This document shows positions 43,628-64,000 of a stretch of DNA of 64,000 nt, one piece after another. The notes beneath the pieces are model-generated. The model was not told where the DNA came from. It made no database searches and worked only from the letters and a program-made list of their open reading frames with translations. Source of the stretch: Candidatus Gallimonas intestinigallinarum (GTDB lineage: Bacteria > Bacillota > Clostridia > Christensenellales > Borkfalkiaceae); NCBI GenBank assembly GCA_944338075.1, contig CALVLM010000011.1, forward strand, positions 403-64,402. The letters run 5' to 3'. Numbering within the stretch: position 1 is the first letter of the stretch; each line of letters starts with the position of its first letter. Made by a program: the position numbers and the translations under genes.

Positions 43628-43925
43628 CAAAGCAAAGGTATGGCGTGTTCGGAGTCCATGCAAATATTCGGCGGCGTGTGCCGCATTATTGATTGAGATA
43701 AGGCTGTTCGCCTAGACTCAAATTTTATAAGTTGGACAGGGCAACCTGTTTGAATTTAGCCGATAAAAGGCGTCACTTGTGAAACGGTCAATAAGAGTAT
43801 TAAAAGTATTTGCTGTATAGACTCTGATCCACGTGCATCAAGCAAAAGCGATTTTTTACGCATGCATGCGCACTGTCGAGGGACGTCCTTGTTCGGGACA
43901 TCCCTTATTTTTTTGGAAGAGAAGT
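43628..43925 (+). promoter_or_regulatory. Long structured 5' leader (candidate riboswitch or attenuator, class not recognised)
   Basis: About 300 nt lie between the promoter and the ATG, with no credible ORF. Several local hairpins are present, and an intrinsic terminator ends 12 nt before the start codon. Confidence 0.45.
43879..43914 (+). terminator. Leader terminator/attenuator hairpin
   Basis: AGGGACGTCC / GGGACATCCCT stem with one mismatch, followed by TATTTTTTT. Confidence 0.6.
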
Positions 43926-45374: not shown

Positions 45375-45398
45375 CCAAAGAAAAGGGAGGGATTGCAT

Positions 45399-46256: not shown

Positions 46257-46328
46257 GCGCGGCAAAACTATGCCCGCCGCGGAATGCGGGCGCTGAAATT
46301 TCAGATATCTCAGAGGGAGGATATAATT

Positions 46329-48697: not shown

Positions 48698-49782
48698 CGA
48701 CCCCCAAACGCGACAACTTTTATATGCCCGCCGAGTACGCGCCGCACGCCGCGACCATCATGATCTGGTGCGAGCGCGGCGGCAGCTGGATCTACGGCGC
48801 AAAGTACGCGCGGCCCGTCTTTGCGGAGATGATCAAAGCCATCAGCCGCAGGGAGAAGGTATACCTCGCCGTGTCCGAGCGGGGAAAGATGAGCGCGCTG
48901 GAATATTTGCAGACTGAGGTCAACGAGGGGCGCGTTGAGCTTGTCGGAATCCCGACGGACGACAGCTGGGCGCGCGACATGGCGCCCACGTTCGTCACCG
49001 ACGGCAGGGAAGTGCGCGCCGTGGACTGGGCGTTCAACGCCTGGGGCGGCGACTACAACGGGCTCTACAAGGACTACCAAAGCGACGACGCCTTTGCAGC
49101 GCAGTTTGCAAAAAGGTACGGCTGCAAGTGCTATCCTGCGCGTCCCTTTGTTTTAGAGGGCGGCTCGGTGCACACCAACGGAAAGGGCACCGTTCTCACG
49201 ACGGAGGAGTGTCTGCTCTCGCCAGGGCGCAATCCGCAGCTGACGAAGGAAGAGATCGGGGAGAAATTGATGGAGTACCTCGGCGCGGAGCGCGTCGTTT
49301 GGCTTCCGTACGGCGTAGAAGGGGACGAGACGGACGGGCACGTCGATAATATCTGCGCGTTCGTATCGGAAAATGAAGTTGTCCTCGGCTGGACGGAGGA
49401 GGGCGAACAGGGCAGACGCTGCCGCGCCGATCTTGAGGCTTTAAAGGCGGCGGGGCTCACCGTCCACAAGCTGCCCTTTCCCAAGACGCCCGTCTGCTTT
49501 ACGCAGTTTGAAGTGGACGGCTTTTCGCCCGAAGAAGGGGAGGACATGCGCGAGGTCGGCGAGAAGCTCGCGGCGAGCTACGTCAATTTCTACGTCTGCA
49601 ATGGCGCGGTGCTCGTGCCGCAGTTCGGCGACGAAAACGACGGCGTCGCCGTGCGCATCCTGTCCGGGCTGTTCCCGGGGCGGGAAGTCGTGCCCGTGTA
49701 TGCCCGCCAGCTCATCATCGGCGGCGGCAACATCCACTGCCTGACGCAGCAGATCCCCGCGCCCTCGCAAAAGGAGAAGTGA
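48694..49782 (+). CDS. aguA: Agmatine deiminase
   Basis: FYMPAEYAPH, SWARD, and the C-terminal GGGNIHCLTQQIP catalytic Cys. ATGA overlap with nspC. Confidence 0.9.
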   Translation: MTTPKRDNFYMPAEYAPHAATIMIWCERGGSWIYGAKYARPVFAEMIKAISRREKVYLAVSERGKMSALEYLQTEVNEGRVELVGIPTDDSWARDMAPTFVTDGREVRAVDWAFNAWGGDYNGLYKDYQSDDAFAAQFAKRYGCKCYPARPFVLEGGSVHTNGKGTVLTTEECLLSPGRNPQLTKEEIGEKLMEYLGAERVVWLPYGVEGDETDGHVDNICAFVSENEVVLGWTEEGEQGRRCRADLEALKAAGLTVHKLPFPKTPVCFTQFEVDGFSPEEGEDMREVGEKLAASYVNFYVCNGAVLVPQFGDENDGVAVRILSGLFPGREVVPVYARQLIIGGGNIHCLTQQIPAPSQKEK

Positions 49783-49784
49783 GT

Positions 49785-50657
49785 ATGAGAAAGATAAAAC
49801 TTGCCTGCGTGCAGATGCGCTGCTCGACTGACCGCGGCGAAAATGTTCAGAAAGCCGCGTCCTTTGTAAGACAGGCCGCAGCGAACGGAGCAAATGTCAT
49901 TCTGCTGCCCGAGCTGTTCGAGCGCCCCTATTTTTGTCAGGAGCGTAACTACGACTACTATGCCTATGCCGAGGAGACGGGAAAGAACGCCGCCGTTTTG
50001 GCGCTGTTGCCTCTTTCTGCGGAGCTGAAGACCGTCATTCCCGTCAGTTTTTACGAAAGAGAGGGGAACGTGCTGTACAATTCCGTTGCGATGCTCGATT
50101 GCGGCAAGCTGCTCGGCGTGTACCGCAAGACGCACATTCCCGACGATCACTACTATCAGGAGAAATTCTACTTCACGCCCGGGAATACGGGATTTCGTAC
50201 CTTTCAGACGACGCATGGGTGTATCGGCGTGGGCATCTGCTGGGATCAGTGGTTCCCGGAGACGGCGCGCGCGCTCGCTATCAACGGCGCGGAGGTGCTG
50301 CTCTATCCCACGGCGATCGGCTCCGAGCCCATTCTGGAGACGGACAGCGCGGGGCACTGGCAGCGGGTCATGCAGGGGCATGCCGCCGCCAATCTGATGC
50401 CCGTTGCGGCGGCAAACCGCATCGGCGAGGAGCGCGTCGCGCCGAGCGCCGGAAACGGCGGGCAGAGCTCGTCGCTCACCTTCTACGGTTCTTCCTTTAT
50501 CGCCGACAACACGGGCGCCAAGCTCGTTGAGGCGGGAAGGAGTGAGGAACGCGTGATTGCGGCGGAGTTTGACCTCGATGAACTTGCCAAGGCGCGCCTT
50601 GCGTGGGGGCTGTTCCGCGACCGTCGCCCGGAGTGCTATAAGGATCTCACAAAATAG
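49785..50657 (+). CDS. aguB: N-carbamoylputrescine amidase (CN-hydrolase family)
   Basis: LLPELF (Glu), YRKTHIP (Lys) and GVGICWDQWFPE (Cys) form the catalytic triad context. Confidence 0.9.
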   Translation: MRKIKLACVQMRCSTDRGENVQKAASFVRQAAANGANVILLPELFERPYFCQERNYDYYAYAEETGKNAAVLALLPLSAELKTVIPVSFYEREGNVLYNSVAMLDCGKLLGVYRKTHIPDDHYYQEKFYFTPGNTGFRTFQTTHGCIGVGICWDQWFPETARALAINGAEVLLYPTAIGSEPILETDSAGHWQRVMQGHAAANLMPVAAANRIGEERVAPSAGNGGQSSSLTFYGSSFIADNTGAKLVEAGRSEERVIAAEFDLDELAKARLAWGLFRDRRPECYKDLTK

Positions 50658-50855: not shown

Positions 50856-50884
50856 TTGCTAAGCGAAAAGATTTGTGATAGAAT
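50856..50884 (+). promoter_or_regulatory. Promoter of the 8-gene McrB-like/surface-protein operon
   Basis: TTGCTA, 17-nt spacer, TAGAAT, with a TGA extended -10. It lies ~35 nt upstream of the first gene. Confidence 0.5.
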
Positions 50885-50917
50885 AATAATAATCTTGTGT
50901 AAGGGTCGCGAAGAACC

Positions 50918-51652
50918 ATGATGATTTTTGTTTTGATAGCATTTTCAGCCGGATTGATATGCGCCATTGTTCTGTGCTGTAAGGTGCTGTATAAACTGCA
51001 TCTCAACGTTCATGCCTTTCTGCGCGGGACGCCTGACATCGGCGTCGCGAGGTACAACCTGAAAGACGGGATTTCCGTCATGTACCGTGCGCCTGCTCCG
51101 TCCGATCGGGCATTGCGCGGATATCAAATATATACCATGCAGAAGAGAAAGGAAAAGTTTTTTGTCGCGGAGTGGGCGGACGGCGCGCGGAGTGCCGAAT
51201 ATGATCTTGTGCTGTACGACGCGTGCAACCGCGTGATCGATATCATGCGGATCGCGGAGGTGCGCGGCGGACGGGCATATACGCACAAATATACGCTCCC
51301 AGCAAAGACGGACTATCTTTCTCTCTCCGTGCGCTCCGTCAATGGCGGACGGCTTGTCTCCGGCTGCGCAATCTCCCTCAAAACGTGCGCCCATATCTTG
51401 TTTGCGGCAGTCGTTTCCGCGCTGTTTGCGTGTGTGATCGCCTGGGTTACATGTTCCATCGTGTTTCTGGCGCAGAGCGGCCTTGCGGGCATCTCGTTCG
51501 GCGGCTGGATGCATCTGCTGCCTGCTTCCGGCTTTGCTGCTTTCGGGTGCTCCGTGCTCATCTCCCTGTATCCTGTTGCCGCGGGGGCATTCCGTGCATG
51601 GGCGGAAAGGATCCGCAGATCACGCCTGAAAGGAGGCGGTCATGGGATATAG
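50918..51652 (+). CDS. Hypothetical membrane protein: N-terminal TM helix, ~120-aa soluble domain and a C-terminal TM bundle
   Basis: 244-aa ORF. Hydrophobic segments MMIFVLIAFSAGLICAIVLCC and HILFAAVVSALFACVIAWVTCSIVFL. No family recognised. Confidence 0.6.
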   Translation: MMIFVLIAFSAGLICAIVLCCKVLYKLHLNVHAFLRGTPDIGVARYNLKDGISVMYRAPAPSDRALRGYQIYTMQKRKEKFFVAEWADGARSAEYDLVLYDACNRVIDIMRIAEVRGGRAYTHKYTLPAKTDYLSLSVRSVNGGRLVSGCAISLKTCAHILFAAVVSALFACVIAWVTCSIVFLAQSGLAGISFGGWMHLLPASGFAAFGCSVLISLYPVAAGAFRAWAERIRRSRLKGGGHGI

Positions 51653-52154
51653 TGCTCCGGTCTATACATACAGCCAAAATGAGCAGAAGGACTTCCCCGT
51701 ATTTGTCAGTCAACTGCTCCTGTATAATGAAAACGGGTGCGTCCTCAGCCTGCGCGTGCGAAATGTGATCGGGGTCATCGTGACGGGGTTGCGGATCAGA
51801 CTGCGCATGTACGACGCCAAGGGCGGGCTGATCGGCGCAAAGCAAATGGAGTTTGACGGGCTTGCCTGCGTGTCAGGATCGGAATGTATCTTGCCCAATA
51901 TCATCATGGCGAAGGAATGCTGTTCGGTCGCGGCAGAAGTGGAACTTGTCCGCTCCGGGCGCTACGAATATTCGCTGTCAGAGGGGAAGGTGAAAGTTGT
52001 ATACCGCCGCGAAGGGGAAGAAGTGCGCATCGGGCGGCGTCCCTTTCATTGCAGTTTTCTGCGTTCGCCGACATATCGCAGATTTTCCGTGCTGTTTACG
52101 TTGCTCTTTGTGAGCGCGGTATCTGCGGCGGTGCTGATCCTGGCGTTCGTGTGA
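51642..52154 (+). CDS. Hypothetical protein with a C-terminal TM anchor
   Basis: 170 aa. 11-nt overlap with the preceding gene. C-terminal FSVLFTLLFVSAVSAAVLILAFV. Confidence 0.55.
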   Translation: MGYSAPVYTYSQNEQKDFPVFVSQLLLYNENGCVLSLRVRNVIGVIVTGLRIRLRMYDAKGGLIGAKQMEFDGLACVSGSECILPNIIMAKECCSVAAEVELVRSGRYEYSLSEGKVKVVYRREGEEVRIGRRPFHCSFLRSPTYRRFSVLFTLLFVSAVSAAVLILAFV

Positions 52155-52187
52155 TAAAGATATTTTTAATTTCGACGGGGCACGTCC

Positions 52188-55100
52188 ATGTTAAAACACA
52201 AAAATGAAATAGAAAAACTTACGCTGCGTCAGAAGACGGCGCTGCTGACCCAATTTGACCGTCTGTCCGACAGCGGGATCAACAGCGCGGGGATCCCGCG
52301 TGTAAAGCGTGCGGAGCTGGACGATCTTGTAAGAGAGAGCGAATACCCCGCTTATTCCTCGATTATCAATTGCTGGGACTCTGCGCTGATTGAACAGATG
52401 ACGACCGAACTTGCCCTGCGCGCAAGGGAGGCCGGTTACAATTTTCTCGTCACGCCCGATCTGAAGGCAGTGAGCAATCCGTACAAGGAGGGCTTGTCCG
52501 AGGACGCCTTTCTGAACGGCAAGGCAGGGGCTGCGATCAGCCGTGCCGTCAAAGCGGCGGGGGCGGCTTGTTGTCTGGAGGGACTGTACCTCGGGGAAGA
52601 GGACGCGGAGTTCCTGGATATGGAACAGGATCGATCCGCGGTCTGTTCCCTGTTTGAAATGCCATTTTTTTACGCCTTGGAGGATACGTCCTGCGATGCC
52701 GTGGGCTGTTCCATGGCTTCGGCGGGCTGCGGGTACGCCTTCGTGAATGCGGAGCTGTTTGATGCCGCAGTTGGAGGTCGGTATGGCAAGGATGCCTTCG
52801 TCGTTGGCAGAGATATCGCGCCCGATACCGACTTTCACGATTTTCTCAACGGAAATACCTGTATCGGCGGCGCTACGCTAGCACTGGACAGGGCGGCGGT
52901 CCGCTATACGCAGTTAAAAGAGTATATTGCCGAGGGGGGAGCTACGGACCGCGATCTGCAGGTCGCGATAGCGGACGGGAAGGCGATCTCGCAGGAGACA
53001 ATCGACAGCGCGGTCGACGGGGTCATCGCATTTGCGCACCGCGTGTCCTCGAGGCGTCCCGCGACCATCGCGTCGCCTGCTGAAAATACCGTCGCTGAGG
53101 CCGCACGCGCTTCCATCGTCTTATTGAAGAACAACGGCGTTCTGCCTATCAGGAAGGGCGCGTCCGTCGCCGTGATCGGGGATTTCCGGAACTGGAAAGA
53201 TGAGATCGCGGCATACTATCCCGTCTCCGGGACGGCTGCCGGGTATGAGACGCTTGCAGAGCGCAGCGACGACTTGCTCTTTGCGGCAGGAGAGGCGGCA
53301 AAGTCTGCCGACGTCGTGGTGGCGGTCCTGGAGCAGCGCCGCACCACAGACAGAGCTGCGCGAAGCCTGATGCTCCCGGCAAACAGACTGGCGCTGATCG
53401 ATACGCTGCGCAGCAACACGAAAAAGCTGATTGCCGTAATCGTCGGAGACGCGCCCGTCGATCTGTCTTTCGATGCGTGCTGTTCGGCTGTCCTGATGGT
53501 ACCGTCCGGCGGCGCGTCCTGCGCAAAGGCGCTCGCGGAGGTGCTCAGCGGCGCTTATAATCCGTCCGGGCGGCTTGCCCGCACCTGTTATGACGGCGGA
53601 GATGCCTTTTTTGCGCAGCTGAAAGATCAGATACGTTCAGGTACAAAGCAAGTCGGAAGCCTGTCCGGTTACAGATATCTCGCATCGGAAAAACTGCGAG
53701 TGCGCTATCCCTTCGGATACGGACTCAGCTATACCAGATTTTCCTACTCCTCGCTCAGGATCGACGGGACGAACGTCACATTTACCATCAAAAATACGGG
53801 ACGCCGCGATGGGGTCGAGACGGCGCAGGTGTATGTTGCATACGGGTGCGGAGGGGTAAAAGAACTCAAGGGCTTTGCAAAAGTTTCTCTGAAGGCGGGG
53901 GAGAGCAAGACGGTTCGCGTCTCCATCCCGCCTGTGAAGCCGCAATCGGATGAGACGGGAAGGCAGACGGAATGCCGTACCGTCTATGTCGGCTCGTCGT
54001 CTCAAAATATTAAGCTCAAGGGGACGATGGGCGGCATGGTGCATAAACTGGCGTCGGTTGCCTCCGCCTTCCCGACAGTTCTTTTGCGCTTTGTTAAGGG
54101 GGGCGCAAAGATGCCTTCTGCGTTTCGCATGTCAGCCGTCAGCGACGGAGAGAAGGGATATGAAACATATTCCCCCGGCGCCGTCATGGGCGCGATCTTT
54201 ATTATAGCTGCCATTCTTACGATGGTCATATCGGCATCCTGCTATGTGTTTCTCGGAGCGCAGTTTTTGATCTGGCAATGGGTCCTGGTCGCGGGCGCAG
54301 GGGGCTTGGTCCTCGTCGAAGTAGCTGTCTATATCGCCATGAAACTGCACCGCGAGAAGTTGCTGCATAAACTGGATGCGGAGGACGAAAAAAAGCAATT
54401 TTTATCCGATGCGAAGAGCGCGGTCACGCCTGAGGGCGCATTTGAAGATGCCTTTGAAAAGACGCAGAGCGCCGTACAGACGAGCGAGCCCGTCAGGGAG
54501 GGATTGCACTATTACGAGAAGGGGTTTACCTTTTCGCTGCTGTCCGGGCAGCTGAAAACATTTTTTTCGGAACGCGGTCTGCTGGCGGAAAACAACGTCC
54601 TGTTTGACCTGATCGGTGCATTGACTTGTTCCCGTCTCCTTCTCGTACCCGGGAAGTACACGGAACAGATGTATTCGATGTGCCGCGTGCTGGCAGAGTA
54701 CTTTGGCTGTGCCTCCTATCGCGACAATGCCGCAGGGGTCGCGCAGGCGGGCGGGTTGTTTGTCGTGCGCGATCGGAACGGCATGCGAAGTACTAATTTA
54801 AGAGCGGCCGTGGAACAGGCGTCGCGAAATACACGCGTTCCCCATGTGGCGGCGGTCGGACATATTTGTGGACAATATGCGCAGGAATTGCTGGGGACGC
54901 TTGCGTGGGGGCTGGAGCAGCACGGCGGCAATCCCGCGCACTTTGAAGCCTACGCCGACGGGCTGAGTGCCGTGCACAGCCTTCCGCCCAATTTGTGGAT
55001 CGTCGCCGCGGTCGACGGCGATATCGACTCTCTCTCGGAGACGTTGACGGAAATCGCGACCGTTTTCATTCCCGATTTTCTCAGGGGACCCGTCTCGTCC

Positions 55101-55526
55101 GAAACGTCGCTGTGCAAACCGCTCAGTTATTTTCAGTTTGAAAATATGCGGCGGTTGGTGCGAGAGCAGTTCCCGCTGGAAGAACAGTTCTGGAAGCGGG
55201 TGGACCGTCTGGAAGAGGGGATTGCGGGGATGCGTCCATACCGGGTGGGAAACAGGCTCTGGAACAAGATGGAGATATTTGCCTCTGCCTTTGCGGCGTC
55301 CGGCGGCACGGAGGCGGATGCGCTCGACGGCGCAGTCGCCTGTTGCCTGTTGGCGGGGGTCTTTACCGATCGTCAGGACAAAGAATACGCGGGGCAAGTC
55401 CTTGCAGAGCTGGAAGCGGCGCTTGGAGAGGAACAGACTACGCAGTGCAAGCGGATGATGCAGTTGCTGCAATCTTTCGGAGAACAGCCCGATCCCCAAT
55501 TCAAGGAGGCTAAATCAAGTGAGTAA
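52188..55526 (+). CDS. GH3-like domain, TM hairpin and degenerate McrB-like AAA+ domain fusion protein
   Basis: The N-terminal ~600 aa are GH3-like, including the Fn3-like LRVRYPFGYGLSYTRF..FTIKNTGRRDGVETAQVYV..ELKGFAKVSLKAGESKTVRVSI. Two TM helices lie at ~54181-54350. The C-terminal ~340 aa are collinear with the two downstream AAA+ proteins but lack Walker A and Walker B. Confidence 0.8.
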   Translation: MLKHKNEIEKLTLRQKTALLTQFDRLSDSGINSAGIPRVKRAELDDLVRESEYPAYSSIINCWDSALIEQMTTELALRAREAGYNFLVTPDLKAVSNPYKEGLSEDAFLNGKAGAAISRAVKAAGAACCLEGLYLGEEDAEFLDMEQDRSAVCSLFEMPFFYALEDTSCDAVGCSMASAGCGYAFVNAELFDAAVGGRYGKDAFVVGRDIAPDTDFHDFLNGNTCIGGATLALDRAAVRYTQLKEYIAEGGATDRDLQVAIADGKAISQETIDSAVDGVIAFAHRVSSRRPATIASPAENTVAEAARASIVLLKNNGVLPIRKGASVAVIGDFRNWKDEIAAYYPVSGTAAGYETLAERSDDLLFAAGEAAKSADVVVAVLEQRRTTDRAARSLMLPANRLALIDTLRSNTKKLIAVIVGDAPVDLSFDACCSAVLMVPSGGASCAKALAEVLSGAYNPSGRLARTCYDGGDAFFAQLKDQIRSGTKQVGSLSGYRYLASEKLRVRYPFGYGLSYTRFSYSSLRIDGTNVTFTIKNTGRRDGVETAQVYVAYGCGGVKELKGFAKVSLKAGESKTVRVSIPPVKPQSDETGRQTECRTVYVGSSSQNIKLKGTMGGMVHKLASVASAFPTVLLRFVKGGAKMPSAFRMSAVSDGEKGYETYSPGAVMGAIFIIAAILTMVISASCYVFLGAQFLIWQWVLVAGAGGLVLVEVAVYIAMKLHREKLLHKLDAEDEKKQFLSDAKSAVTPEGAFEDAFEKTQSAVQTSEPVREGLHYYEKGFTFSLLSGQLKTFFSERGLLAENNVLFDLIGALTCSRLLLVPGKYTEQMYSMCRVLAEYFGCASYRDNAAGVAQAGGLFVVRDRNGMRSTNLRAAVEQASRNTRVPHVAAVGHICGQYAQELLGTLAWGLEQHGGNPAHFEAYADGLSAVHSLPPNLWIVAAVDGDIDSLSETLTEIATVFIPDFLRGPVSSETSLCKPLSYFQFENMRRLVREQFPLEEQFWKRVDRLEEGIAGMRPYRVGNRLWNKMEIFASAFAASGGTEADALDGAVACCLLAGVFTDRQDKEYAGQVLAELEAALGEEQTTQCKRMMQLLQSFGEQPDPQFKEAKSSE

Positions 55527-56835
55527 CGTTATCAACGTATTGACTGCGGATGGCGCGTCGAGCGTGCTGGAGATCCTGACAAGTCCTTTGCTCATCATTA
55601 TTTATATTGCCGTCGTCATCCTTCTCATCCTGCTCGTGGTGATCTCCGTCATGATCAACGAACGCCGGTTTAATCAGTCGGTCAAACGCATTCTCTCGCA
55701 GGCAAAAAAGACGGAAAAGCTCGATCAGCTTGAACGGGAGGAAAAGGCGGGAAAGAACAAAAATCGTTTTGAACTGCTCAAAAAGATCGATGCGGAGGGG
55801 GTGAACAAACGCAGCGATTTTACGCAGTCGTGCACCCTCCATGAGATCTGCGATGAATTCCGCCTCTTTGCCGCAAACCGCCTGAATTTGTACTATGATA
55901 TCTCCGATATCAGGCAATTTGTCGCGGGGCTTGCTGTTTCCCGCATCCTGATCCTGCAGGGTATGTCGGGTACGGGCAAAACGTCGCTCGCGTATGCGTT
56001 CGGGGAATTTATCGATAATTCCTCTGTCGTCATTCCCGTGCAGCCGATGTGGAAGGAGCGCACCGACCTGCTCGGGTACTACAATGAGTTCACCCGCCGC
56101 TTCAACGAAACGCTGCTTTTGGAGAAGATGTATGAGGCGGGCGAGCGGGAGGACATGTATATCACGATCATGGACGAACTCAATATCGCCCGCGTGGAAT
56201 ACTATTTTGCAGAATTTTTGTCTCTGCTGGAGATCCCCAATCCTGAGGCTCGCTATCTGGAAGTGGTGTCCGATCATTGGGAGACCGACCCCGCGAAGCT
56301 AAAGAACGGGCGTATCAGGCTGCCTGAAAACATGTGGTTTGTAGGGACGGCAAACAACGACGATTCCACGTTTTCCATCTCCGACAAGGTGTACGACAGA
56401 GCGATGGTCCTCAATCTTGACCGCAAGTCGGAGCCCTTTCAGACTTCGAGCAGCAAAAAGATGCCGCTCACCGCGAAAAAGTTCGATGAACTGGCACGCA
56501 AGGCAGTAGAGGACTATTCTGTCACGCAGGAAAGTCTTGCGCGCCTCGATCAGCTGGATAAATACCTGATCGAAAAGTTCCAGATCACTTTCGGCAACAG
56601 AATCATGCGTCAGATTCTGCGCTATATTCCGATCTTTATCGCATGCGGCGGAACGGAGCCGGAAGCACTGGACGATATTCTGACAAAGAAGGTACTGCGT
56701 AAACTGGAGACGCAGAATACTGCCTACTTGCGCAGCGAATCCGAGGAACTTTGCAACTATATTGAGGGATTGTTCGGCGAGAACGCCATGCCGCGTTGCA
56801 CCGAGTATATCCGCCGTATTGCAAGGAATATTTGA
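55519..56835 (+). CDS. Membrane-anchored McrB-like AAA+ GTPase (paralog 1)
   Basis: N-terminal TM helix SPLLIIIYIAVVILLILLVVISVMI. P-loop LILQGMSGTGKTS and Walker B region ITIMDELNIARVEYYFAEFLSLLE. McrB-signature-like WFVGTANNDDSTFSISDKVYDRAMVL. A GTG start follows AAGGAGG. Confidence 0.85.
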   Translation: MSNVINVLTADGASSVLEILTSPLLIIIYIAVVILLILLVVISVMINERRFNQSVKRILSQAKKTEKLDQLEREEKAGKNKNRFELLKKIDAEGVNKRSDFTQSCTLHEICDEFRLFAANRLNLYYDISDIRQFVAGLAVSRILILQGMSGTGKTSLAYAFGEFIDNSSVVIPVQPMWKERTDLLGYYNEFTRRFNETLLLEKMYEAGEREDMYITIMDELNIARVEYYFAEFLSLLEIPNPEARYLEVVSDHWETDPAKLKNGRIRLPENMWFVGTANNDDSTFSISDKVYDRAMVLNLDRKSEPFQTSSSKKMPLTAKKFDELARKAVEDYSVTQESLARLDQLDKYLIEKFQITFGNRIMRQILRYIPIFIACGGTEPEALDDILTKKVLRKLETQNTAYLRSESEELCNYIEGLFGENAMPRCTEYIRRIARNI

Positions 56836-56845
56836 GGCGTAAAAC

Positions 56846-58663
56846 ATGACGCAGACCGATCTGTATTTTCGTGCATATCTCGACTATAAAACGGCGCTCC
56901 AAAAGGACAGGGAGACGTCCACACTTCGCGCCGCCCTTGTGCAGGCGGAGCAAGCGGAGCATATCGCCAGCGTGCGCGCAGTTTGTGAGATCGAAAACGA
57001 TTGGGTGGACGCCGTCGAGCGCGGGCTGATCTATATCGGAAGGTCGATCGATGAGGAGCGACAATTCATCCTTTCCCAGGGCGAAGTCCAGCCCATCGAG
57101 AAGATCAAGCGCGTCTCCAAGGAATCGGTGGAGCACCTTGCGCGGCACAGCAACCTGATCATGCACGAACAAAAGAGTGCAGATGATATTGTACCCGACA
57201 AACTCTATACGGTGGAAAGGTTGAGCAATTATGCCGTATACGAGAACAGGTTTTTATTCATGCTCCTGAACATGGTCAAAGATTTTGTCTCGGTGCGCTA
57301 TAACGCCATCGTCCGCCTGACCAATACATATCACGGGAAACTCTCGGTCGACAAGGCGGTCTCCCTGGGAAAGCACAGGCTGCGCTATCGGCTGGAGCTG
57401 GACGATGAGCGTGAGGATGATCCTGTCATGCGCGCGAATAATAACGTCCGCGAGACGCTGGAGCGTATGGAGATCATCTTGCGTACGGTGCACTACTATC
57501 TGAATACGCCGCTGATGACGGAGGTCGCGAAGGCGGATAAGCTCAAGCCGCCCATCACCAAGACCAATCCGCTGCGCATGGATAAAAATCTCAAGGAGAC
57601 GGTCGTCCTCTATGAGTTTCTGATGGCGTATGAGAAGGACGGCTACACGATCACGCAGGAGGAACAATTGCTCAATCCGCGAAAGGGGGATGTGGCGGAC
57701 GAACTTGTCGATCCCGCTCTGCTCGCCGCCTTTCTCACATACGAAAGCACGCTTGCCCTGAAAGACGAGCTGCTGCGCCGCTATCAGGAGGAGGAAGCGC
57801 GCAGGCGGGCGGAGGAACTGCGCGAAGTCGAGGCACAGCTATCGTCCATCCGCGACCGGATGCGGGAAACGGGCTGGACAGAGCGTTATATCGCACTGTT
57901 GGAAAAGAAAAACAGTCTGCTGGAGCGCGAGAATGAGCGCGTCGCTGCGTTGCGTTCGCGCATGGAGGAGCTGGAAGGATTAAACAATGCGCTTCATGAG
58001 CAGATCGCCGCGCATGCGGCAGAGCTGGAATGCATCGGCGAGGCACACGCCAGAGAGATTTCAGATTATCAGGCGCGCCTTGATGAGCAGCGGCAAAAGC
58101 TTGCCGAGGAAATGGCAGAGCGCGCCAATGAGCGCAGCCGTCTGGAAGAACAGAGGCGTGCGGAACTTGCGAAGCTGCGGGAGGAGACGGATGCACTGCT
58201 CGCCGAAAGAGACGGCCGCTATCTGGAAAAATCGCGCGAGGCAGAGGATTTGACGGAGCGCCTTGCACGGCTTGCAAAACAAAAAGCCCTCAACGATGCC
58301 CGTCTGAACGGGCTTCGGCAGCAATACGGACTGTTGTCTCCCATGGATGATTTTTCCTCCGAGGAAGCCTTTACGGAACTGGAAGATGAACTTGAGGCGC
58401 TGTATGAGTTGGTTCGTGGCGAATGGAAGAATGCGAAAGAGATCTTGCGGAGAAATTTCCTGCATGACCTCAAGGACATTATAAGCGGTAAAAAACGCAA
58501 AGCTGCCGCTGCGAAAAAGGCAGAAGTTTTGCCGGAGGAAGACGAGGCCGCTGCTGCACATGAGGCTCCGGAGCAGGTTGCGGCAGAGCCCGCAGAACAG
58601 GACGGCGGCGAAATTGCATTAGCGGAGGGCGAACAGCGCAATGAAGAAACAAGAAGGACCTAA
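56846..58663 (+). CDS. McrC/DUF2357-like N-terminal domain fused to a long coiled coil; no nuclease motif seen
   Basis: LSNYAVYENRFLFMLLNMV and KPPITKTNPLRMDKNLKETVVLYEFL resemble the McrC N-terminal (DUF2357) pattern, recognised from memory. Residues ~300-540 are heptad-rich and Glu/Arg/Leu-rich. The tail is acidic. Confidence 0.6.
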   Translation: MTQTDLYFRAYLDYKTALQKDRETSTLRAALVQAEQAEHIASVRAVCEIENDWVDAVERGLIYIGRSIDEERQFILSQGEVQPIEKIKRVSKESVEHLARHSNLIMHEQKSADDIVPDKLYTVERLSNYAVYENRFLFMLLNMVKDFVSVRYNAIVRLTNTYHGKLSVDKAVSLGKHRLRYRLELDDEREDDPVMRANNNVRETLERMEIILRTVHYYLNTPLMTEVAKADKLKPPITKTNPLRMDKNLKETVVLYEFLMAYEKDGYTITQEEQLLNPRKGDVADELVDPALLAAFLTYESTLALKDELLRRYQEEEARRRAEELREVEAQLSSIRDRMRETGWTERYIALLEKKNSLLERENERVAALRSRMEELEGLNNALHEQIAAHAAELECIGEAHAREISDYQARLDEQRQKLAEEMAERANERSRLEEQRRAELAKLREETDALLAERDGRYLEKSREAEDLTERLARLAKQKALNDARLNGLRQQYGLLSPMDDFSSEEAFTELEDELEALYELVRGEWKNAKEILRRNFLHDLKDIISGKKRKAAAAKKAEVLPEEDEAAAAHEAPEQVAAEPAEQDGGEIALAEGEQRNEETRRT

Positions 58664-60083
58664 AAAACACTACAAGCTGTCCATATTTTTCATCGCGCTT
58701 GTCGCCATTGCGGGCGGACTGTTGCTGACTGCCCTGATCTACTTGCAGGTTACGGGTCAGTTTGCCGCGCTCACGGAGGCGATCCGGGAAATTGTCGCGC
58801 AGAACACCATCTACGGGATCCTGATCCTATTCTGGGTCATCATCATTCCGTTGATGCTCGTCCTGATCTTTGTGCTCAATCTGTTCAGGAGGGACAGGTT
58901 CAAGAAGATCAAAAAGGGCTGGGAGGACGCGGCGCGGATCGTCGCCGAAAAGGAGGCGGCAGCCAGGAAGCGGGAAGAGGAAAAGAAAAAACAGACCATT
59001 TCCCGCTTCGGGACACTGAACAGCTACGATCACAAATCGCCCGCCCGTAAGGCGGACCAGGCGGCGCTTACGCTCACGCTCGGCGATTTTTGCGACAACT
59101 TCCGTATGTTTGCGGCGCAGAAGTTTCGATTGTACTATGATATTTCCGTCATCAGACAGTTTGTGGCGGGGCTTGCCGTCTCGCACCTGATGATCTTGCA
59201 GGGCATGTCGGGCACGGGCAAAACATCGATCGCCTATGCGTTCGGCGAGTTTCTCGGAAATTCTTCGGAGATCGTTCCCGTGCAGCCCGTCTGGAAGGAG
59301 CGCACCGATCTTCTGGGCTATTACAATGAGTTTACAAAAAAGTATAACGAAACGCCTTTCCTGCAAAAGATGTACCAGGCAAACGCAAGCGATAAGCTGT
59401 ATGTCGTCGTCCTGGATGAGCTGAACATTGCACGCGTGGAATACTACTTTGCGGAGTTTCTCTCACTGCTGGAGATCCCCGATCCCAATTCTCGCTACCT
59501 TGAAGTCGTACCTGACCGCTGGCCGACCGATCCCGCAGGTCTGCAAAACGGGAGAATCAGACTGCCCGACAACATGTGGTTTATCGGCACGGCAAACAAC
59601 GACGATTCCACCTTCGCGATCTCCGACAAGGTGTACGACAGGGCAATGGTCATCAATCTTGACAGCAAGGCAGAGCCCTTCTTGCCGGACGGCGACGAGG
59701 TGCGCTGTGTTCCCATTTCCGCCGCCGGATTCAGGAAGTTGATTGCCTCTGCGCAGGCGGGGTATGAGATCACCAACCGCAATATGCGCAGGCTCAGAGA
59801 GTTGGACGAATACCTGATCGAAAAATTTCAGATCACCTTCGGAAACCGTATCATGCGGCAGATCAAGGACTATATTTCCGTCTATGTCGGATGCGGTGGT
59901 GACGAAATGGAAGCGCTCGATGATATCATATCCAAAAAAGTGCTTCGGAAGTTGGAGATGCAGAACGCCGTATACGTCAAAAATCAGGCGGAAGCGCTGT
60001 GCAACTACCTTTGCGAGCTGTTCGGCGAAACTAAAGTTCCCAAGTGCATTGCATATGTCAGGCGCGTCGCGCGGAATGCGTAA
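58641..60083 (+). CDS. Membrane-anchored McrB-like AAA+ GTPase (paralog 2)
   Basis: Two N-terminal TM helices. MILQGMSGTGKTS, VVVLDELNIARVEYYFAEFLSLLE and WFIGTANNDDSTFAISDKVYDRAMVI. The core is highly similar to paralog 1. Confidence 0.85.
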   Translation: MKKQEGPKKHYKLSIFFIALVAIAGGLLLTALIYLQVTGQFAALTEAIREIVAQNTIYGILILFWVIIIPLMLVLIFVLNLFRRDRFKKIKKGWEDAARIVAEKEAAARKREEEKKKQTISRFGTLNSYDHKSPARKADQAALTLTLGDFCDNFRMFAAQKFRLYYDISVIRQFVAGLAVSHLMILQGMSGTGKTSIAYAFGEFLGNSSEIVPVQPVWKERTDLLGYYNEFTKKYNETPFLQKMYQANASDKLYVVVLDELNIARVEYYFAEFLSLLEIPDPNSRYLEVVPDRWPTDPAGLQNGRIRLPDNMWFIGTANNDDSTFAISDKVYDRAMVINLDSKAEPFLPDGDEVRCVPISAAGFRKLIASAQAGYEITNRNMRRLRELDEYLIEKFQITFGNRIMRQIKDYISVYVGCGGDEMEALDDIISKKVLRKLEMQNAVYVKNQAEALCNYLCELFGETKVPKCIAYVRRVARNA

Positions 60084-60092
60084 GGAGGGTAT

Positions 60093-62369
60093 ATGAACGG
60101 TAGATCCAGACTTTTATATGTTTTTGGTACGATCGTTGTCGTCCTTATTTCGGCAGTGATCATTGCCGCATGCCTGATCGGTGCCGGAAACGGTTTTGGA
60201 CTGATCAACTGGTCAGCATTGGGATCGGGCGGTACGGGCGGCGGCACGGGCGGCGGTGGTTTGCCCGGCGGCGGTGGTTTGCCCGGCGGCGGTGATACGC
60301 AGATCGAGTGCCACGAGCATGAACTGACTTACTTGGAGCAGAAAGACCCGACCTGTACGGAAGAGGGAAATATCGCGTGCTGGTACTGCGAAACATGTGA
60401 TGTGTATTTTGTGGACGCGTGCGGGCAGATTGTCCTGTCGGAGGACGAGGTGTTTCTCGACTCGCTCGGACATGATTTTTCCGAGGAATGGGAGTACACC
60501 ACCTCAGAGCACTATCATCCCTGCATTCGCTGCGATGCGCAGTCCGGCAATGAGGAGCATATTTATAACGCGAGCGATGTTTGTATCGTGTGCGGATATG
60601 AAAAGCCTGAGGAAGTTCCGCCTGAAGGCGGCGGAGGCGGAGAGTTTTCCGGACTCGATCTGAGCGGCCTGATCAGAGGACCGATGTTTTACAATGATGC
60701 CGTAATTGCATATGTCTATTCCGATACGTCCGGCGGCGAGTACCTCAAAGTCAAGAGTTTTGGCGACTATGCCGGCTTTATGTGGGATTCTGCGGAGGCG
60801 TATGACGGGAGACTTGTTGCCGATTACTCGATGAATTATCTCACGGGGGCTTGGATGGGAAATGAGCATGTGCCGTCAAAAATGACCATCCTCAACAAGA
60901 CTTCGCTCTATATTCTTCCGAGCTATCTGGCTGTCGGGGCGGGCGGATACGAGATACAGAGCAGCGACGTGCTGTATGTCGGCAAGTATACGGCGAGCTA
61001 TACGGTCCCGTATTCCACCAATGCGGACGTCAGGGGGAGTCTTTCCTCTGCCCCCGATCTCGGCGCGTACAGCGCCGCGGAGGCAGCGTACAGGCAGTAT
61101 GTTTATGAAAACTATCTCTCCGTTCCCGCGTCAACATTGGAGTTTTTGTTGCAGTATGCGGAGGAACACGGCATCTCTCCCTCCGATGAGAATTTGATTT
61201 GGGAAATTGAGGCGCTGATCCGTTCCTCTGCAACGTACAATATGCAATATGACAGAGACATGGATGCGGAGGAGGATATCGTGGTCGCGTTTCTCGATCG
61301 TTATCGAGAGGGGACGTGCTCGCATTTCGCTTCGGCTGCGACGTTGATGTATCGCGCACTTGGTATCCCGGCGCGCTATGTAACGGGGTGCGTCTGTACG
61401 ACTTCCGCCGGGCAGTACGCCGTCGTGACGGGCAATCAGGCGCATGCCTGGACGGAGATCTATCTCGATGGCTGCGGCTGGATCACGATCGATGCCACTG
61501 GGAGTGGGGGGCTTGGCGGAGGGCTGCCTGGTGGAGGACTGCCCGGCGGGGAAGAGCCCGGCGGAGAACAGCCCGGCGGGGAAGAGCCCGGCGGAGAACA
61601 GCCCGGCGGGGAAGAGCCCGGCGGGGAAGAGCCCGGCGGAGAACAGCCCGGCGGGGAAGAGCCCGGCGGAGAACAGCCCGGCGGAGAACAGCCCGGCGGA
61701 GAACAGCCCGGCGGAGAACAGCCCGGCGGAGAACAGCCCGGCGGGGAAGAGCCCGGCGGGGAAGAGCCCGGCGGGGAAGAGCCCGGCGGGGAAGAGCCCG
61801 GCGGGGAAGAGCCCGGCGGGGAACAACCCGGCGGACAACAGCCGCCTTCCATTGCTCCCACCCGTACATTACAAATCACGACCCAGGACATCGTTGCCGA
61901 ATATGACGGTACGGCGCATTTCAGCGAGGACTTCTCCGTTGTCGGGCTGGCGAGCGGGCACAGAATTCAAACATTCAACGTGACGAAATTGACGAGGGTC
62001 GGCGTCGCGACCAATGAAGTGGCGGGAATTCTCGTCTATGACAGCCTCGGAAACGATGTCACGACCATGTACAAGATGGAATATACCTATGGAACGATTA
62101 CCGTGACGCCGCGGTCGATCACGATCGAGACAGGCTCGGCATCCAAGGTATATGACGGAACGCCGTTGCAATGCGATACATATTCGGTCACGTCGGGCGC
62201 GCTTGCGGAGGGCGATCAGATCGGCGAGATTGTTTTTACCGGCACTCAGACCGAGCATGGAAGAAGTCAGAACGGCATTTCCGACCTTGTGATATACGAT
62301 CGTAACGGGACGGATGTAACCACATGCTATTCGATCGAGGTCGTCGCAGGCACATTGACGGTCTATTGA
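60093..62369 (+). CDS. Membrane-anchored surface protein: Cys/His-rich module, transglutaminase-like core, PGGE(E/Q) linker and two MBG-type repeats
   Basis: N-terminal TM helix. Transglutaminase core GTCSHFASAATLMYRALGIPARYV..AHAWTEIYLDGCGWITIDATG. 20 x PGGE[EQ] units. KVYDGTPL-type repeats. AAGGAGG Shine-Dalgarno sequence. Confidence 0.85.
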   Translation: MNGRSRLLYVFGTIVVVLISAVIIAACLIGAGNGFGLINWSALGSGGTGGGTGGGGLPGGGGLPGGGDTQIECHEHELTYLEQKDPTCTEEGNIACWYCETCDVYFVDACGQIVLSEDEVFLDSLGHDFSEEWEYTTSEHYHPCIRCDAQSGNEEHIYNASDVCIVCGYEKPEEVPPEGGGGGEFSGLDLSGLIRGPMFYNDAVIAYVYSDTSGGEYLKVKSFGDYAGFMWDSAEAYDGRLVADYSMNYLTGAWMGNEHVPSKMTILNKTSLYILPSYLAVGAGGYEIQSSDVLYVGKYTASYTVPYSTNADVRGSLSSAPDLGAYSAAEAAYRQYVYENYLSVPASTLEFLLQYAEEHGISPSDENLIWEIEALIRSSATYNMQYDRDMDAEEDIVVAFLDRYREGTCSHFASAATLMYRALGIPARYVTGCVCTTSAGQYAVVTGNQAHAWTEIYLDGCGWITIDATGSGGLGGGLPGGGLPGGEEPGGEQPGGEEPGGEQPGGEEPGGEEPGGEQPGGEEPGGEQPGGEQPGGEQPGGEQPGGEQPGGEEPGGEEPGGEEPGGEEPGGEEPGGEQPGGQQPPSIAPTRTLQITTQDIVAEYDGTAHFSEDFSVVGLASGHRIQTFNVTKLTRVGVATNEVAGILVYDSLGNDVTTMYKMEYTYGTITVTPRSITIETGSASKVYDGTPLQCDTYSVTSGALAEGDQIGEIVFTGTQTEHGRSQNGISDLVIYDRNGTDVTTCYSIEVVAGTLTVY
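60252..60294 (+). repeat. 18-nt tandem duplication (about 2.4 copies) encoding GGGLPG
   Basis: GGCGGTGGTTTGCCCGGC occurs at 60252-60269 and 60270-60287, followed by a partial third copy. Confidence 0.85.
61542..61841 (+). repeat. 15-nt tandem repeat x20 encoding PGGEE/PGGEQ
   Basis: Units of CCCGGCGGGGAAGAG or CCCGGCGGAGAACAG run in phase from 61542. Only the last two units are degenerate. Confidence 0.95.
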
Positions 62370-62381
62370 CAGGGGATCAGA

Positions 62382-64000
62382 ATGCTCTATCAATCGTATC
62401 AACAAAAACTTGATCATCTGACAGCGATTTTTGCGAAAATCTGGCACTTTCGCATTCTCATTGTCTGCGCCGTCGTATTTGTCGTCGCATTGATAGGCGT
62501 TTTGCTGGGTATCACAGGGACCATCGTTTCGTTCCGCTGCGATTCGTCGGTATGGTATGGCGATGAATTGCAGGTCTCGGCTTCGGCGATCTTTAAGGGC
62601 GTAACGTATGAGTATCGGCAGGCGGGCGGAACCTGGGGCAGCGAGCGTCCGACAAAAGTTGGCAACTATGAGGTGCGGGCGTCGGCGGACGGCATCGGCG
62701 GAACACGGTACAGTCAGGTTCTTTCGTTTTCGGTGCTGCCGCGTCCCACCGAAGTAACGATCGTGCAGGAAACTCTGGTCTATGGGGAGACGCCCGTTGC
62801 GACGGCAGAGCTTGTCTATTCCGATGAGATCCTATCGCAGTCCGTAGCGTATGAAATCGAGGATGCGAACTTTATGATTTCCTCGGCAGAGCTCACTGTC
62901 GTCAACGAAGCGGGCGAGGAGGTCACGGAAAACTATCAGTTTAGCTTTCAGCCTTGCAGCGTCGCCATGGCGCCCCGCCCCATCACGATCTCCGTCGAGG
63001 ACGCCGTAAAAGTGTATGACGGCACGCCGCTCACGTCCCGCGAATATTGCATTGCCGATGGCTCGCTGGTCGAAGGGGATCGCCTTGAAGTGGACTTTTC
63101 CGCTTCCGTGACCTTGGCATCGACGGTCGAAAATACGCCCGTGGTTCATATCTTGGATCGTGCCGGTACGGATATTACCGCGTACTACGATATCACCATC
63201 GATGTGGGGATGCTTGTGGTGGAGCCGATGGAGATCATGTTGACGACAGGAAGTGCGCAGAGCGTATATGACGGCGCAGATTGGTCAGAGGAGTCATATA
63301 CGGCAAGCGTGCCTCTCCCTGCCGGGCACACTGCAGTATGCTCTGCATTCCCGTCCGTTCGCAATGTGGGCACCTATGAAAATACGGCAACTGTTGTGAT
63401 CGTCAATGCGGAAGGGGAGGACGTGAGCGGAAGTTTTCGCTTACAGATGACGTTCGGAACCCTGACCGTGTTGCCAAGAACGCTGGAGGTGACGACGGGC
63501 TCGCAGACGTGGGCATATGACGGCTTGCCGCATTCCTGCAAGGAGTTTTCCGCCGTTGGTTTGGTTGAAGGCCATGCGATGCAGGTCATGTCTGCAACGT
63601 CCGTCAAGGAGGTCACGGATGACGGCGACATTCCCGGCTATGTGGAGAATATTTTGACGTTTTCCATTATGGATGCACAGAATACGGACGTGAGCGCCAA
63701 CTATTCTCTTCAGATCGACTACGGCAGCTTGCGCATTTCTGAAGCGGTCATCGTGCGCGTGTTCGGGTTGGAAAAGTATTATGACGGAACGCCGCTTTCC
63801 TATACGGAGGACGATTATCGGGTCATCCATCATCCGGAAGGGTACGATGTGCGTGTGATGATCAATGGATCTTTGACCGAACCGGGAAAGCGGACGCCGC
63901 AGGTGACGGTACAGGTCTTTGATGAAAGCGGCAGAGATGTCACAGCACAACAGATGATTTCTGTGATCGGCGAATGCTATCTGCGTGTGCTGCCTCGGAA
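62382..64000 (+). CDS. Membrane-anchored MBG-repeat (YDG-type) surface protein, partial (continues past the window end)
   Basis: This ORF is absent from the track because no stop codon lies in the window. MLYQSYQQKLDHL..TM helix ILIVCAVVFVVALIGVLLGI, then at least 5 repeats with VKVYDGTPL / QSVYDGADW / TWAYDGLPH / EKYYDGTPL cores. Confidence 0.75.
   Translation, partial: MLYQSYQQKLDHLTAIFAKIWHFRILIVCAVVFVVALIGVLLGITGTIVSFRCDSSVWYGDELQVSASAIFKGVTYEYRQAGGTWGSERPTKVGNYEVRASADGIGGTRYSQVLSFSVLPRPTEVTIVQETLVYGETPVATAELVYSDEILSQSVAYEIEDANFMISSAELTVVNEAGEEVTENYQFSFQPCSVAMAPRPITISVEDAVKVYDGTPLTSREYCIADGSLVEGDRLEVDFSASVTLASTVENTPVVHILDRAGTDITAYYDITIDVGMLVVEPMEIMLTTGSAQSVYDGADWSEESYTASVPLPAGHTAVCSAFPSVRNVGTYENTATVVIVNAEGEDVSGSFRLQMTFGTLTVLPRTLEVTTGSQTWAYDGLPHSCKEFSAVGLVEGHAMQVMSATSVKEVTDDGDIPGYVENILTFSIMDAQNTDVSANYSLQIDYGSLRISEAVIVRVFGLEKYYDGTPLSYTEDDYRVIHHPEGYDVRVMINGSLTEPGKRTPQVTVQVFDESGRDVTAQQMISVIGECYLRVLPR

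Follow-up and report, generated by a model that had tools for sequence, protein, structure and literature searches.

An operon joining genes for membrane-anchored McrB-like AAA+ proteins and a nuclease-less McrC-like protein to surface-protein genes in gut Firmicutes

The 64,000-nt window analysed here, a stretch of contig CALVLM010000011.1 (GCA_944338075.1) from Candidatus Gallimonas intestinigallinarum, ends in an operon of eight genes, g1 to g8 (Table 1), that is kept in hundreds of species of gut Firmicutes. These genes, referred to below as the cassette, encode two small membrane proteins (g1 and g2), a 1112-amino acid (aa) fusion protein ending in a degenerate AAA+ domain (g3), two McrB-like AAA+ proteins (g4 and g6) with a McrC-like protein between them (g5), and two anchored surface proteins (g7 and g8). 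The eight open reading frames (ORFs) lie on the + strand from position 50918 past the window end at 64000, and their junctions, from g1/g2 to g7/g8, measure -11, +33, -8, +10, -23, +9 and +12 nt, in agreement with a preliminary description, made from the sequence alone, of eight same-strand genes with overlaps or gaps of at most 35 nt. No convincing + strand terminator was seen between the genes. The same description had the operon running out of the window; g8 does cross the end, but in four contigs (L087-L090), taken as the same species from their identical g6 protein and shared upstream genes, its stop codon lies about 270 nt farther on, so that the operon has eight genes in all. As for the single promoter proposed at 50856-50884, the site is indeed there, in the 260-nt gap upstream of g1, but the region shows no excess of promoter-like sites over shuffles (9 found versus 7.7 expected), and it is by its position alone that it is a plausible promoter.

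Relatives were sought in one genome per species, which yielded at least 592 of them (592 of the 600 stretches examined). The AAA+ family gave 8000 scored matches in a protein search, and a library clustered at 50% contains 8844 AAA+ representatives at E<=1e-3 and 822 at E<=1e-30. Carriers are found among uncultured Clostridia, Christensenellaceae, Oscillospiraceae, Lachnospiraceae, Pumilibacteraceae (including the cultured Pumilibacter muris), Anaeroplasmataceae, Acholeplasmatales and Haloplasmataceae, in most cases in material from animal guts, and the AAA+ domains of Clostridia and Anaeroplasmataceae are 50-65% identical. In a comparative set of 78 genome loci, tblastn and all-against-all clustering revealed the order (g1, g2) g3, g4, g5, g6, (g7), g8 wherever enough flank was available for it to be judged; the gene linkage assumed in the preliminary description is thus kept. 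The flanks are unrelated between species. The only gene families that recur among these 78 loci are the cassette's own, with no helicase, nuclease, division or cell-wall gene recurring beside it.

Both g4 and g6 match the Pfam family AAA_5 and carry the McrB-type hallmarks already pointed out in the preliminary description: the P-loop QGMSGTGKTS, a Walker B region (I/V)(M/L)DELNIARVEYYFAEFLSLLE and the sensor motif GTANNDDSTF(S/A)ISDKVYDRAMV, the core motifs common to the two proteins being GMSGTGKTS, LDELNIARVEYYFAEFLSLLE and GTANNDDSTF. In an alignment of 27 family members, GMSGTGKTS and LDE(L/M)N do not vary, and Walker A is kept in 114 of 120 proteins of the active type versus none of 53 of the dead type. 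These motifs strongly support the view that g4 and g6 are catalytically intact AAA+ proteins of McrB type, for which GTP hydrolysis is predicted. Neither carries a DNA-reader domain detectable with Pfam or NCBIfam (which, with PADLOC, were the libraries used to scan all eight products); their N-termini consist instead of transmembrane (TM) helices and a short charged helix, as had been noticed. By hydropathy, g4 has a single TM at residues ~23-45, followed by the short charged helix, and g6 has two, with a helix that runs about 35 residues past the second TM into the cytoplasm (hydropathy and an AlphaFold2 model with a predicted local distance difference test score, pLDDT, of 80). The charge distribution predicts that the AAA+ domains of both face the cytoplasm. 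A third module of the same family forms the C-terminal ~330 residues of g3, which are collinear with the AAA+ domain and lid of g4 and g6 and have lost Walker A, Walker B and the N-x-D sensor motif (NxD), so that the dead AAA+ domain recognized there earlier is confirmed. In 35 loci the AAA+ genes number exactly three, one dead and two active, which lends support to the earlier idea of a hetero-oligomer, the ring itself being predicted. All three modules are predicted to be held at the cytoplasmic face of the membrane by TM helices of their own.

To which clade of AAA+ proteins the two enzymes belong was approached from several sides. E. coli McrB was the top single-sequence match in the PDB, midasin and dynein being weaker, and it was the only match of a PDB profile search with the family; hhalign against E. 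coli McrB gave a probability of 96% (E 3e-9), and McrB is also the best AAA match of g4 and g6 in NCBIfam. The sensor-1 signature, counted over 118 representative relatives, reads N (118), a variable residue, D (118), then D (84), E (28), Q (3), A (2) or V (1), and then S-T. The sequence NNDD of the window, taken alone, could also be read as NxxD, as it is in the ungapped HMMER alignment to McrB. The clade that comprises CoCoNuT and CoCoPALM is defined by an NxD motif that in most cases continues with E or another D (Bell et al. 2024, PMC11090510), and by this signature g4 and g6 are members of the NxD clade of McrB-like GTPases. The evidence from sequence argues that the AAA+ proteins belong with McrB, and not with MoxR or dynein. 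Their nearest annotated relatives, at 35-40% identity, are AAA genes of 800 aa followed by a DUF2357-type gene on plasmids of Deinococcus and Polaromonas, where the operon order (PP2C, kinase, large helicase, X, AAA, DUF2357) is the layout of CoCoNuT types II and III, the AAA gene corresponding to CnuB. A separate clade of NxD McrB-like GTPases, with 4-6 N-terminal TMs and 550-840 aa, about 40% identical to g6, was also encountered (P0274-P0371, for example P0275 and P0288) and appears to be undescribed.

The protein encoded between the two active GTPase genes, g5, has no TM. Its N-terminal half matches DUF2357, the N-terminal domain of McrC, at residues 76-160, with an E-value of 1.4e-5 for the full protein (above the gathering score) and of 4.6e-7 for residues 1-320, and the same domain is matched independently by 26 of 40 g5 homologues, which bears out the McrC/DUF2357-like half of the preliminary description. 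That description also placed a coiled coil where the nuclease would be, and residues ~305-560 indeed match coiled-coil proteins only, while no nuclease family was recognized in any of the eight products (Pfam, NCBIfam, PADLOC) or in the 40 g5 homologues. An AlphaFold2 model of residues 1-320 (pLDDT 76.6) leaves the most conserved stretch, residues 73-128, disordered, as might be expected of a segment that acquires its fold only when lodged in a partner. Taken together, domain match and coiled coil strongly support a partner of the McrC N-terminal type that is predicted to be nuclease-less.

The tripartite architecture of g3, a GH3-like domain, a TM hairpin and the dead AAA+ domain, is upheld by Pfam, hydropathy and the alignment with g4 and g6. 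Pfam detects Glyco_hydro_3_C (E 8e-28) and an Fn3-like domain, and 8j9f, a GH3 beta-glucosidase, can be aligned with residues 44-613 from one end to the other (E 9e-37). In this alignment VVGRD replaces VVSDW and LEG replaces KHF, and across 19 members of the g3 family neither the SDW nucleophile nor the K-H substrate pair is conserved; the GH3-like domain is predicted to be catalytically inactive. No signal peptide was found on g3. The two small membrane proteins expected upstream are there as well: g1 begins with a TM, which is followed by a beta-rich module (about 120 aa), two more TMs and a basic C-terminus, and g2 consists of a beta module and a C-terminal TM tail anchor, an arrangement that would place the g2 module in the cytoplasm because the protein is tail-anchored. 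The beta modules of g1 and g2 are homologous (hhalign 77%, E 2e-5), and neither protein has a match in Pfam, NCBIfam, PADLOC or the PDB profiles. The g1 family was found in 17-20 related loci. In three loci (L015, L025 and L042) the g2 module with its TM forms the N-terminus of BspA-like leucine-rich repeat (LRR) surface proteins of 859-1770 aa, and these giants occupy the g2 slot between g1 and g3. They also carry C-terminal Cys-rich CxxC segments as in g7.

Of the two surface proteins, g7 is made of an N-terminal anchor, Cys-rich segments, a transglutaminase core, a pentapeptide repeat linker and immunoglobulin-like (YDG/MBG-like) domains, and is thus the TM-anchored transglutaminase-core protein that had been announced. 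The Cys/His/Asp triad of the putative enzyme is present (GTCSHFA, HAWTE and IDAT). The linker is encoded by a 15-nt tandem repeat, and g7 measures 654, 662, 665 or 758 aa across the contigs of the species, which looks like a contingency-type length polymorphism of a surface protein; that the Q-rich (E/Q)PGGE units might be donor sites for the transglutaminase is speculation. In one contig (L089), g7 appears broken into a transglutaminase ORF of 460 aa. The last protein, g8, has a cytoplasmic N-terminal tail (MLYQSYQQKL...), a TM and an ectodomain, and no LPxTG motif was found in it. It had been called an MBG-repeat protein; it can be retained as an N-terminally anchored repeat adhesin, but its MBG matches are weak (MBG_3, E 0.006; MBG, E 0.07) and AgI_II_C2 (E 3e-8) is the sole Pfam match above threshold. 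The first 60 residues of g8, that is the MLYQxYxxKL tail and the TM, can be recognized in 31 loci as the very beginning of the last giant protein. The ectodomains of these proteins are just 25-35% identical.

Several variants of the cassette exist. In four Lachnospiraceae loci (L074, L077, L078 and L079) the dead AAA+ domain is carried by a short TM protein of 339-472 aa that is free of the GH3-like domain. The order of the surface genes is inverted in the same four loci, a small g8-like gene preceding the transglutaminase gene. The transglutaminase core was detected in 32 loci. Carriage by mobile elements was also considered, and essentially none was found: just two distant matches were obtained in 2.9 million viral contigs, and no plasmid match at >=60% identity.

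Upstream of the cassette, 260 nt from g1, lies a polyamine-synthesis operon (43833-50657) with genes for an arginine/ornithine decarboxylase, a spermidine synthase, a saccharopine-dehydrogenase-like protein, a pyridoxal-dependent decarboxylase, an agmatine deiminase and a CN-hydrolase. It is the left neighbour in all four same-species contigs, and the identical g6 protein is present in 507 blocks of the collections and occurs in hundreds of samples. The polyamine operon looks complete, leading from agmatine through putrescine to spermidine or a carboxyspermidine-type product. On the other side, in the same-species contigs (15300-21400), g8 is followed after a gap by a gene of 173-187 aa with a weak match to BclA_C (C1q-like, exosporium), beyond which the strains diverge and carry integrase fragments, a MarR/acetyltransferase pair, or a TIR-domain protein with a large serine recombinase (L089). 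A role in sporulation, suggested by this BclA_C-like gene, the transglutaminase and weak SpoVK matches, was set aside because the cassette is present in Anaeroplasmataceae and Acholeplasmatales, lineages that are not known to sporulate. Elsewhere in the window, positions 1-4500 have a G+C content of 42-43%, versus about 58% in the rest; this segment, which contains a large serine recombinase gene (1003-2823) and abuts a tRNA-Glu(CTC) gene (4404-4478), probably represents one end of an element that has integrated here. Another large serine recombinase (38654-40237; Resolvase, Recombinase, Zn_ribbon_recom, DUF4368) is followed by two + strand ORFs without Pfam match (40213-41460 and 41384-42745), the latter overlapping a GalT-like ORF on the - strand (41444-43222).

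Table 1. Coordinates of the genes, domains and other features of the cassette; positions refer to the window unless another locus is named.
Feature	Position	Strand	Basis
promoter candidate, sigma-70-like, TTGCTA-17-TAGAAT, TG-extended, 9/12	50856..50884	+	260-nt gap 5' of g1
g1, 244-aa membrane protein	50918..51652	+	ORF
g2, 170-aa tail-anchored protein	51642..52154	+	ORF
g3, 1112-aa fusion	52188..55526	+	ORF, Pfam, NCBIfam
g3, GH3-like and Fn3-like, residues 44-613	52317..54026	+	aligned with 8j9f
g3, TM hairpin, residues ~660-720	54165..54347	+	hydropathy
g3, degenerate McrB-like AAA+, residues ~770-1100	54495..55487	+	collinear with AAA+ and lid of g4/g6
g4, 438 aa, one TM and NxD-type McrB-like GTPase domain	55519..56835	+	Pfam, NCBIfam, PADLOC, hydropathy
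g5, 605 aa, DUF2357 and coiled coil	56846..58663	+	Pfam
g5, N-terminal half, residues 1-300, DUF2357 (McrC N-terminal domain)	56846..57745	+	Pfam
g5, C-terminal half, ~250-residue coiled coil, short conserved helical segment, acidic low-complexity tail	57758..58663	+	coiled-coil matches only
g6, 480 aa, two TMs and NxD-type McrB-like GTPase domain	58641..60083	+	Pfam, hhalign, AlphaFold2
g7, 758-aa anchored transglutaminase-core surface protein	60093..62369	+	Pfam, hydropathy
g7, Transglut_core	61203-61496	+	Pfam, E 4e-21
g7, 15-nt tandem repeat, ~20 copies, (E/Q)PGGE units	61541..61834	+	
g8, repeat adhesin, 627 aa in full	62382..64000 (window end)	+	Pfam, hydropathy, same-species contigs
LRR giant with g2-type module, locus L015	2216-6625		
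LRR giant with g2-type module, locus L025	1120-6432		
LRR giant with g2-type module, locus L042	4145-6724		

CoCoPALM has been named in a single paragraph, its details being left to a 'forthcoming publication' (Bell et al. 2024, eLife 13:RP94800, PMC11090510), and our literature search found no follow-up paper. It was described as an NxD GTPase fused to an FtsB-like TM and coiled coil, with a coiled coil on the McrC homologue and genes of the signal-peptidase family (pilus assembly) nearby (PMC11090510). Three operons in our material (L084-L086, genes around 10001-11584) fit this definition: they encode an EAL protein, small proteins, the GTPase with its FtsB-like fusion, a DUF2357 coiled-coil protein (541-983 aa), a set of four SipW-type signal peptidase paralogues and one protein whose signal peptide is SipW-dependent. 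In addition, a Flg_new protein of 2567 aa is encoded near the operon of L084, and an LRR_5 protein near that of L085. The cassette shares with CoCoPALM a TM-anchored NxD GTPase (about 44-46% identity), a nuclease-less DUF2357 partner with a long coiled coil (residues ~305-560 in g5), the presence in Clostridia and the tie to genes for extracytoplasmic structures; moreover, the g5 profile matches the DUF2357 partners of the three operons with E-values of 1e-30 to 1e-42. In a rough neighbour-joining tree, the g4/g6 group is sister to that of the CoCoPALM-type GTPase P0257, while the groups with coiled coil only (CoCoNuT-like) and with 4-5 TMs fall outside. The CoCoPALM-type loci differ by their one GTPase of ~505 aa with a leucine-zipper FtsB-like helix, their SipW peptidases and their EAL protein. 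Indeed, in P0257 and P0264 (~505 aa) an amphipathic N-terminus is followed by a single TM and a leucine-zipper helix, whereas the cassette GTPases have a TM with a contiguous helix that is not a leucine zipper, with a sub-threshold FtsL-like match (E 0.067). No signal-peptidase match was found in g1-g8 at E<=0.1, although in the P0257-type locus L086 these genes are detected without difficulty. The possibility that g1 or g2 is the 'signal peptidase family' protein of CoCoPALM was rejected, since the SipW paralogues are easily detected in L084-L086 and the profiles of g1 and g2 have no match in these loci. Because it has no signal peptidase, three AAA+ paralogues instead of one and other accessory genes, we regard the cassette as a distinct sister variant and not as a member of CoCoPALM. 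The preliminary description knew of no described system of this composition. The literature that could be searched indeed yielded no description of exactly this composition, but with the sister system named in print (PMC11090510) the idea of a membrane-bound, non-restriction McrBC is anticipated by CoCoPALM and not wholly new. What sets the cassette apart from CoCoPALM is the combination of two active and one dead AAA+ protein, the pseudo-GH3 fusion, g1 and g2, the transglutaminase and the repeat adhesins.

McrBC is the textbook GTP-driven restriction motor, in which McrB hexamers are GTPases activated by McrC. With the canonical system of E. coli the cassette shares the AAA+ fold, the Walker B region, the sensor motif and a partner of the McrC N-terminal domain family; it differs in having TM helices in place of the DNA-reader domain, N-x-D in place of N-x-x-D, no PD-(D/E)xK domain, and three paralogous AAA+ modules in place of one. 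Another AAA+ protein of the H2-insert group is encoded beside a membrane transglutaminase-like protein in the MoxR-VWA-transglutaminase (Bat-like) operons. There, the AAA+ protein is of the MoxR model AAA_3 and is accompanied by VWA/DUF58 genes, whereas the cassette has AAA_5/McrB proteins and a DUF2357 partner; an assignment to this type of operon was rejected, no AAA_3, VWA or DUF58 domain being present in the cassette. CoCoNuT systems (CnuB/CnuC, CnuH helicase, CnuE nuclease; Bell et al. 2024, PMC11090510) share with the cassette the NxD GTPase clade (35-40% identity), a DUF2357 partner that is often without an active nuclease, and extensive coiled coils. Their GTPases, however, are soluble and have long N-terminal coiled coils. 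The cassette contains none of the components that go with these GTPases, namely a nuclease encoded separately (HEPN, PLD or Vsr) in every case and, as a rule, a UPF1-like helicase together with a TerY-P triad. In Staphylococcus aureus, the McrB-family protein PcdA has been co-opted for the selection of the division plane (PMC10602043), and offers an example of a McrB-family NTPase with a non-restriction task at the cell envelope. PcdA has kept its EVE reader domains, has degraded Walker motifs, has lost the lid and has no McrC-like partner, whereas the cassette retains intact catalytic motifs as well as an intact McrC-like partner.

These comparisons lead us to a reading to which we give about an even chance (roughly 0.5): the cassette would encode a cytoplasmic hetero-oligomeric GTPase ring that is activated by the McrC-like protein and acts on membrane-anchored surface proteins. 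The three paralogues (g4, g6 and the C-terminal part of g3) would assemble into a mixed ring, into which the loop formed by residues 73-128 of g5 would insert and stimulate GTP hydrolysis, by analogy with the action of McrC on McrB (structures cited in PMC11090510 and PMC10602043), the coiled coil of g5 being a dimeriser or a strut that replaces the nuclease. The work would be spent not on nucleic acid but on the type-II-anchored surface proteins g8 and g7 and, elsewhere, on the LRR giants with a g2 module, which the motor may reach through their cytoplasmic tails, their TM segments and the beta modules of g1 and g2. The outcome could be a control of the insertion, clustering, anchoring or conformation of these proteins; the extracellular transglutaminase might cross-link or process the adhesin layer, and the pseudo-GH3 domain may be a scaffold or a ligand sensor. 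The link between machine and surface is drawn from two observations, namely that the tail and TM of g8 are kept in 31 loci despite the divergence of the ectodomains, and that the cytoplasmic module of g2 is fused through its TM to LRR ectodomains in three loci. The membrane-bound, nuclease-less McrB-like motor of the preliminary description is itself supported by the McrB-type motifs, the predicted TM anchoring, the DUF2357 partner and the synteny, its function being deduced.

A number of points weigh against this reading. To our knowledge, McrB-family motors act on nucleic acids, and we know of no precedent for one that acts on membrane proteins. Ring formation, GTPase activity, topology and the contact with g7 and g8 are predictions. 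As regards g5, a Foldseek search with the model of residues 1-320 gave no PDB match at E<0.09, hhalign against the single sequence of E. coli McrC gave nothing, and the PDB profile search returned coiled-coil proteins only; the attempt at a structural proof of its McrC-like nature thus failed, and since neither Foldseek nor hhalign came to its support it is the Pfam DUF2357 match that, alone, carries this assignment. Likewise, with the AlphaFold2 model of g6, Foldseek placed RavA, MCM and NorQ just above McrB of T. gammatolerans at similar E-values, BrxL and dynein being comparable, which indicates membership of the H2-insert AAA+ group without separating McrB from MoxR or MCM. The preliminary description had left room for a MoxR- or dynein-like clade; PDB, profile, hhalign and NCBIfam matches and the NxD signature speak for McrB, but the structural comparison does not discriminate. 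The accessory genes are unevenly distributed, g1 and g2 being detected in only about 20 loci, and the transglutaminase is not a universal component, as it was found in only 32 loci and its core went undetected in seven of the nine Mollicutes- or Bacilli-labelled loci checked, including all those of Anaeroplasma and Acholeplasmatales. Finally, the NxD clade is otherwise predicted to be defensive, and g4 and g6 match the PADLOC candidate model PDC-M26A with E-values of 1e-47 to 5e-53.

This last point brings in the main rival, given the ancestry of the clade, namely an envelope-linked defence against phages or plasmids, in which a membrane-bound McrBC derivative without a nuclease of its own would sense the entry of DNA or a perturbation of g7 or g8 as receptors and set off an abortive or blocking response. 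We consider it unlikely. It draws on the descent from McrBC and the close kinship with the GTPases of CoCoNuT in predicted defence operons (PMC11090510), on the PDC-M26A match, on the TIR-domain gene and serine recombinase that L089 carries just downstream, and on the strain-variable repeat of g7, as would be expected of a surface protein exposed to phages. The PDC-M26A match, however, was rejected as a sign of defence because it is confined to the GTPase domain common to the NxD clade, through which every NxD GTPase tested (CoCoNuT-type, CoCoPALM-type, multi-TM and coiled-coil) matches the same model. No nuclease, HEPN, helicase, methyltransferase or other known effector is found in the cassette or recurs beside it, and the strict co-inheritance with giant adhesins would be left without obvious explanation. 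The role at the surface is favoured over defence because the cassette has no nucleic-acid-related domain, because the sister system is linked to SipW, because the chromosomal context beside housekeeping genes is stable (with the identical protein in hundreds of samples), and because the cassette hardly occurs in collections of phage, viral or plasmid sequences.

A signalling switch working from the outside inwards is less probable still. The adhesin, the LRR proteins and the transglutaminase would sense contact or a ligand, the GTPase ring with its activator would be a slow NTPase relay to the cytoplasm, and the pseudo-GH3 domain would read a sugar or an envelope precursor. Dead GH3-like and dead AAA+ domains are typical of sensors and scaffolds, the surface proteins have conserved cytoplasmic tails, sister operons encode EAL phosphodiesterases of cyclic di-GMP, and PcdA provides the precedent of a McrB-family protein acting as a weak NTPase switch in cell division (PMC10602043). 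Yet the cassette contains no output domain (helix-turn-helix, kinase, cyclase or EAL), and catalytic motifs that are invariant in g4 and g6 across distant lineages suit an active motor better. Very improbable, in our view, is a factor of cell division or envelope morphogenesis that would associate with the divisome, as PcdA does (PMC10602043), through FtsB/FtsL-like N-termini of TM and helix, the surface genes being mere neighbours: the FtsB-like fusion of the sister clade (PMC11090510) and the FtsL, FliL and LiaS-like matches at the N-terminus of g4 (E 0.007-0.07) hint at it, but these matches fall far short of the threshold, genes for division or the cell wall do not recur nearby, and the cassette persists in the wall-less Anaeroplasmataceae and Acholeplasmatales with adhesin genes still attached.

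Returning to the ring acting on surface proteins, a bolder form of it can be imagined, which we hold to be doubtful: a GTP-driven hetero-hexamer of McrB type, with the coiled-coil McrC-like protein as a lever, would pull or reposition the tails of the giant adhesins across the membrane. Such a machine would have a functional analogue in Mycoplasma mobile, where an internal ATPase motor drives the Gli surface 'legs'. If this form were true, wall-less and thin-walled gut Firmicutes would gain an energy-dependent control of adhesion, of adhesin turnover and even of surface motility, and, together with CoCoPALM, a whole branch of McrBC would have moved from defence against nucleic acids to the mechanics of the cell surface.

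The analysis suggests that a restriction machine has been re-used to build or operate surface structures. With a cassette that is widespread, conserved and linked to adhesins, the role of the nuclease-less coiled-coil descendants of McrBC becomes testable, and a ring of two active paralogues and a dead one would be a useful natural model for the mechanics of AAA+ proteins. Should a McrB-type ring indeed act on membrane proteins, this would be a new activity for the family and a new use of an immune ATPase, as well as a new route of surface-protein handling in poorly studied, mostly uncultured gut bacteria.

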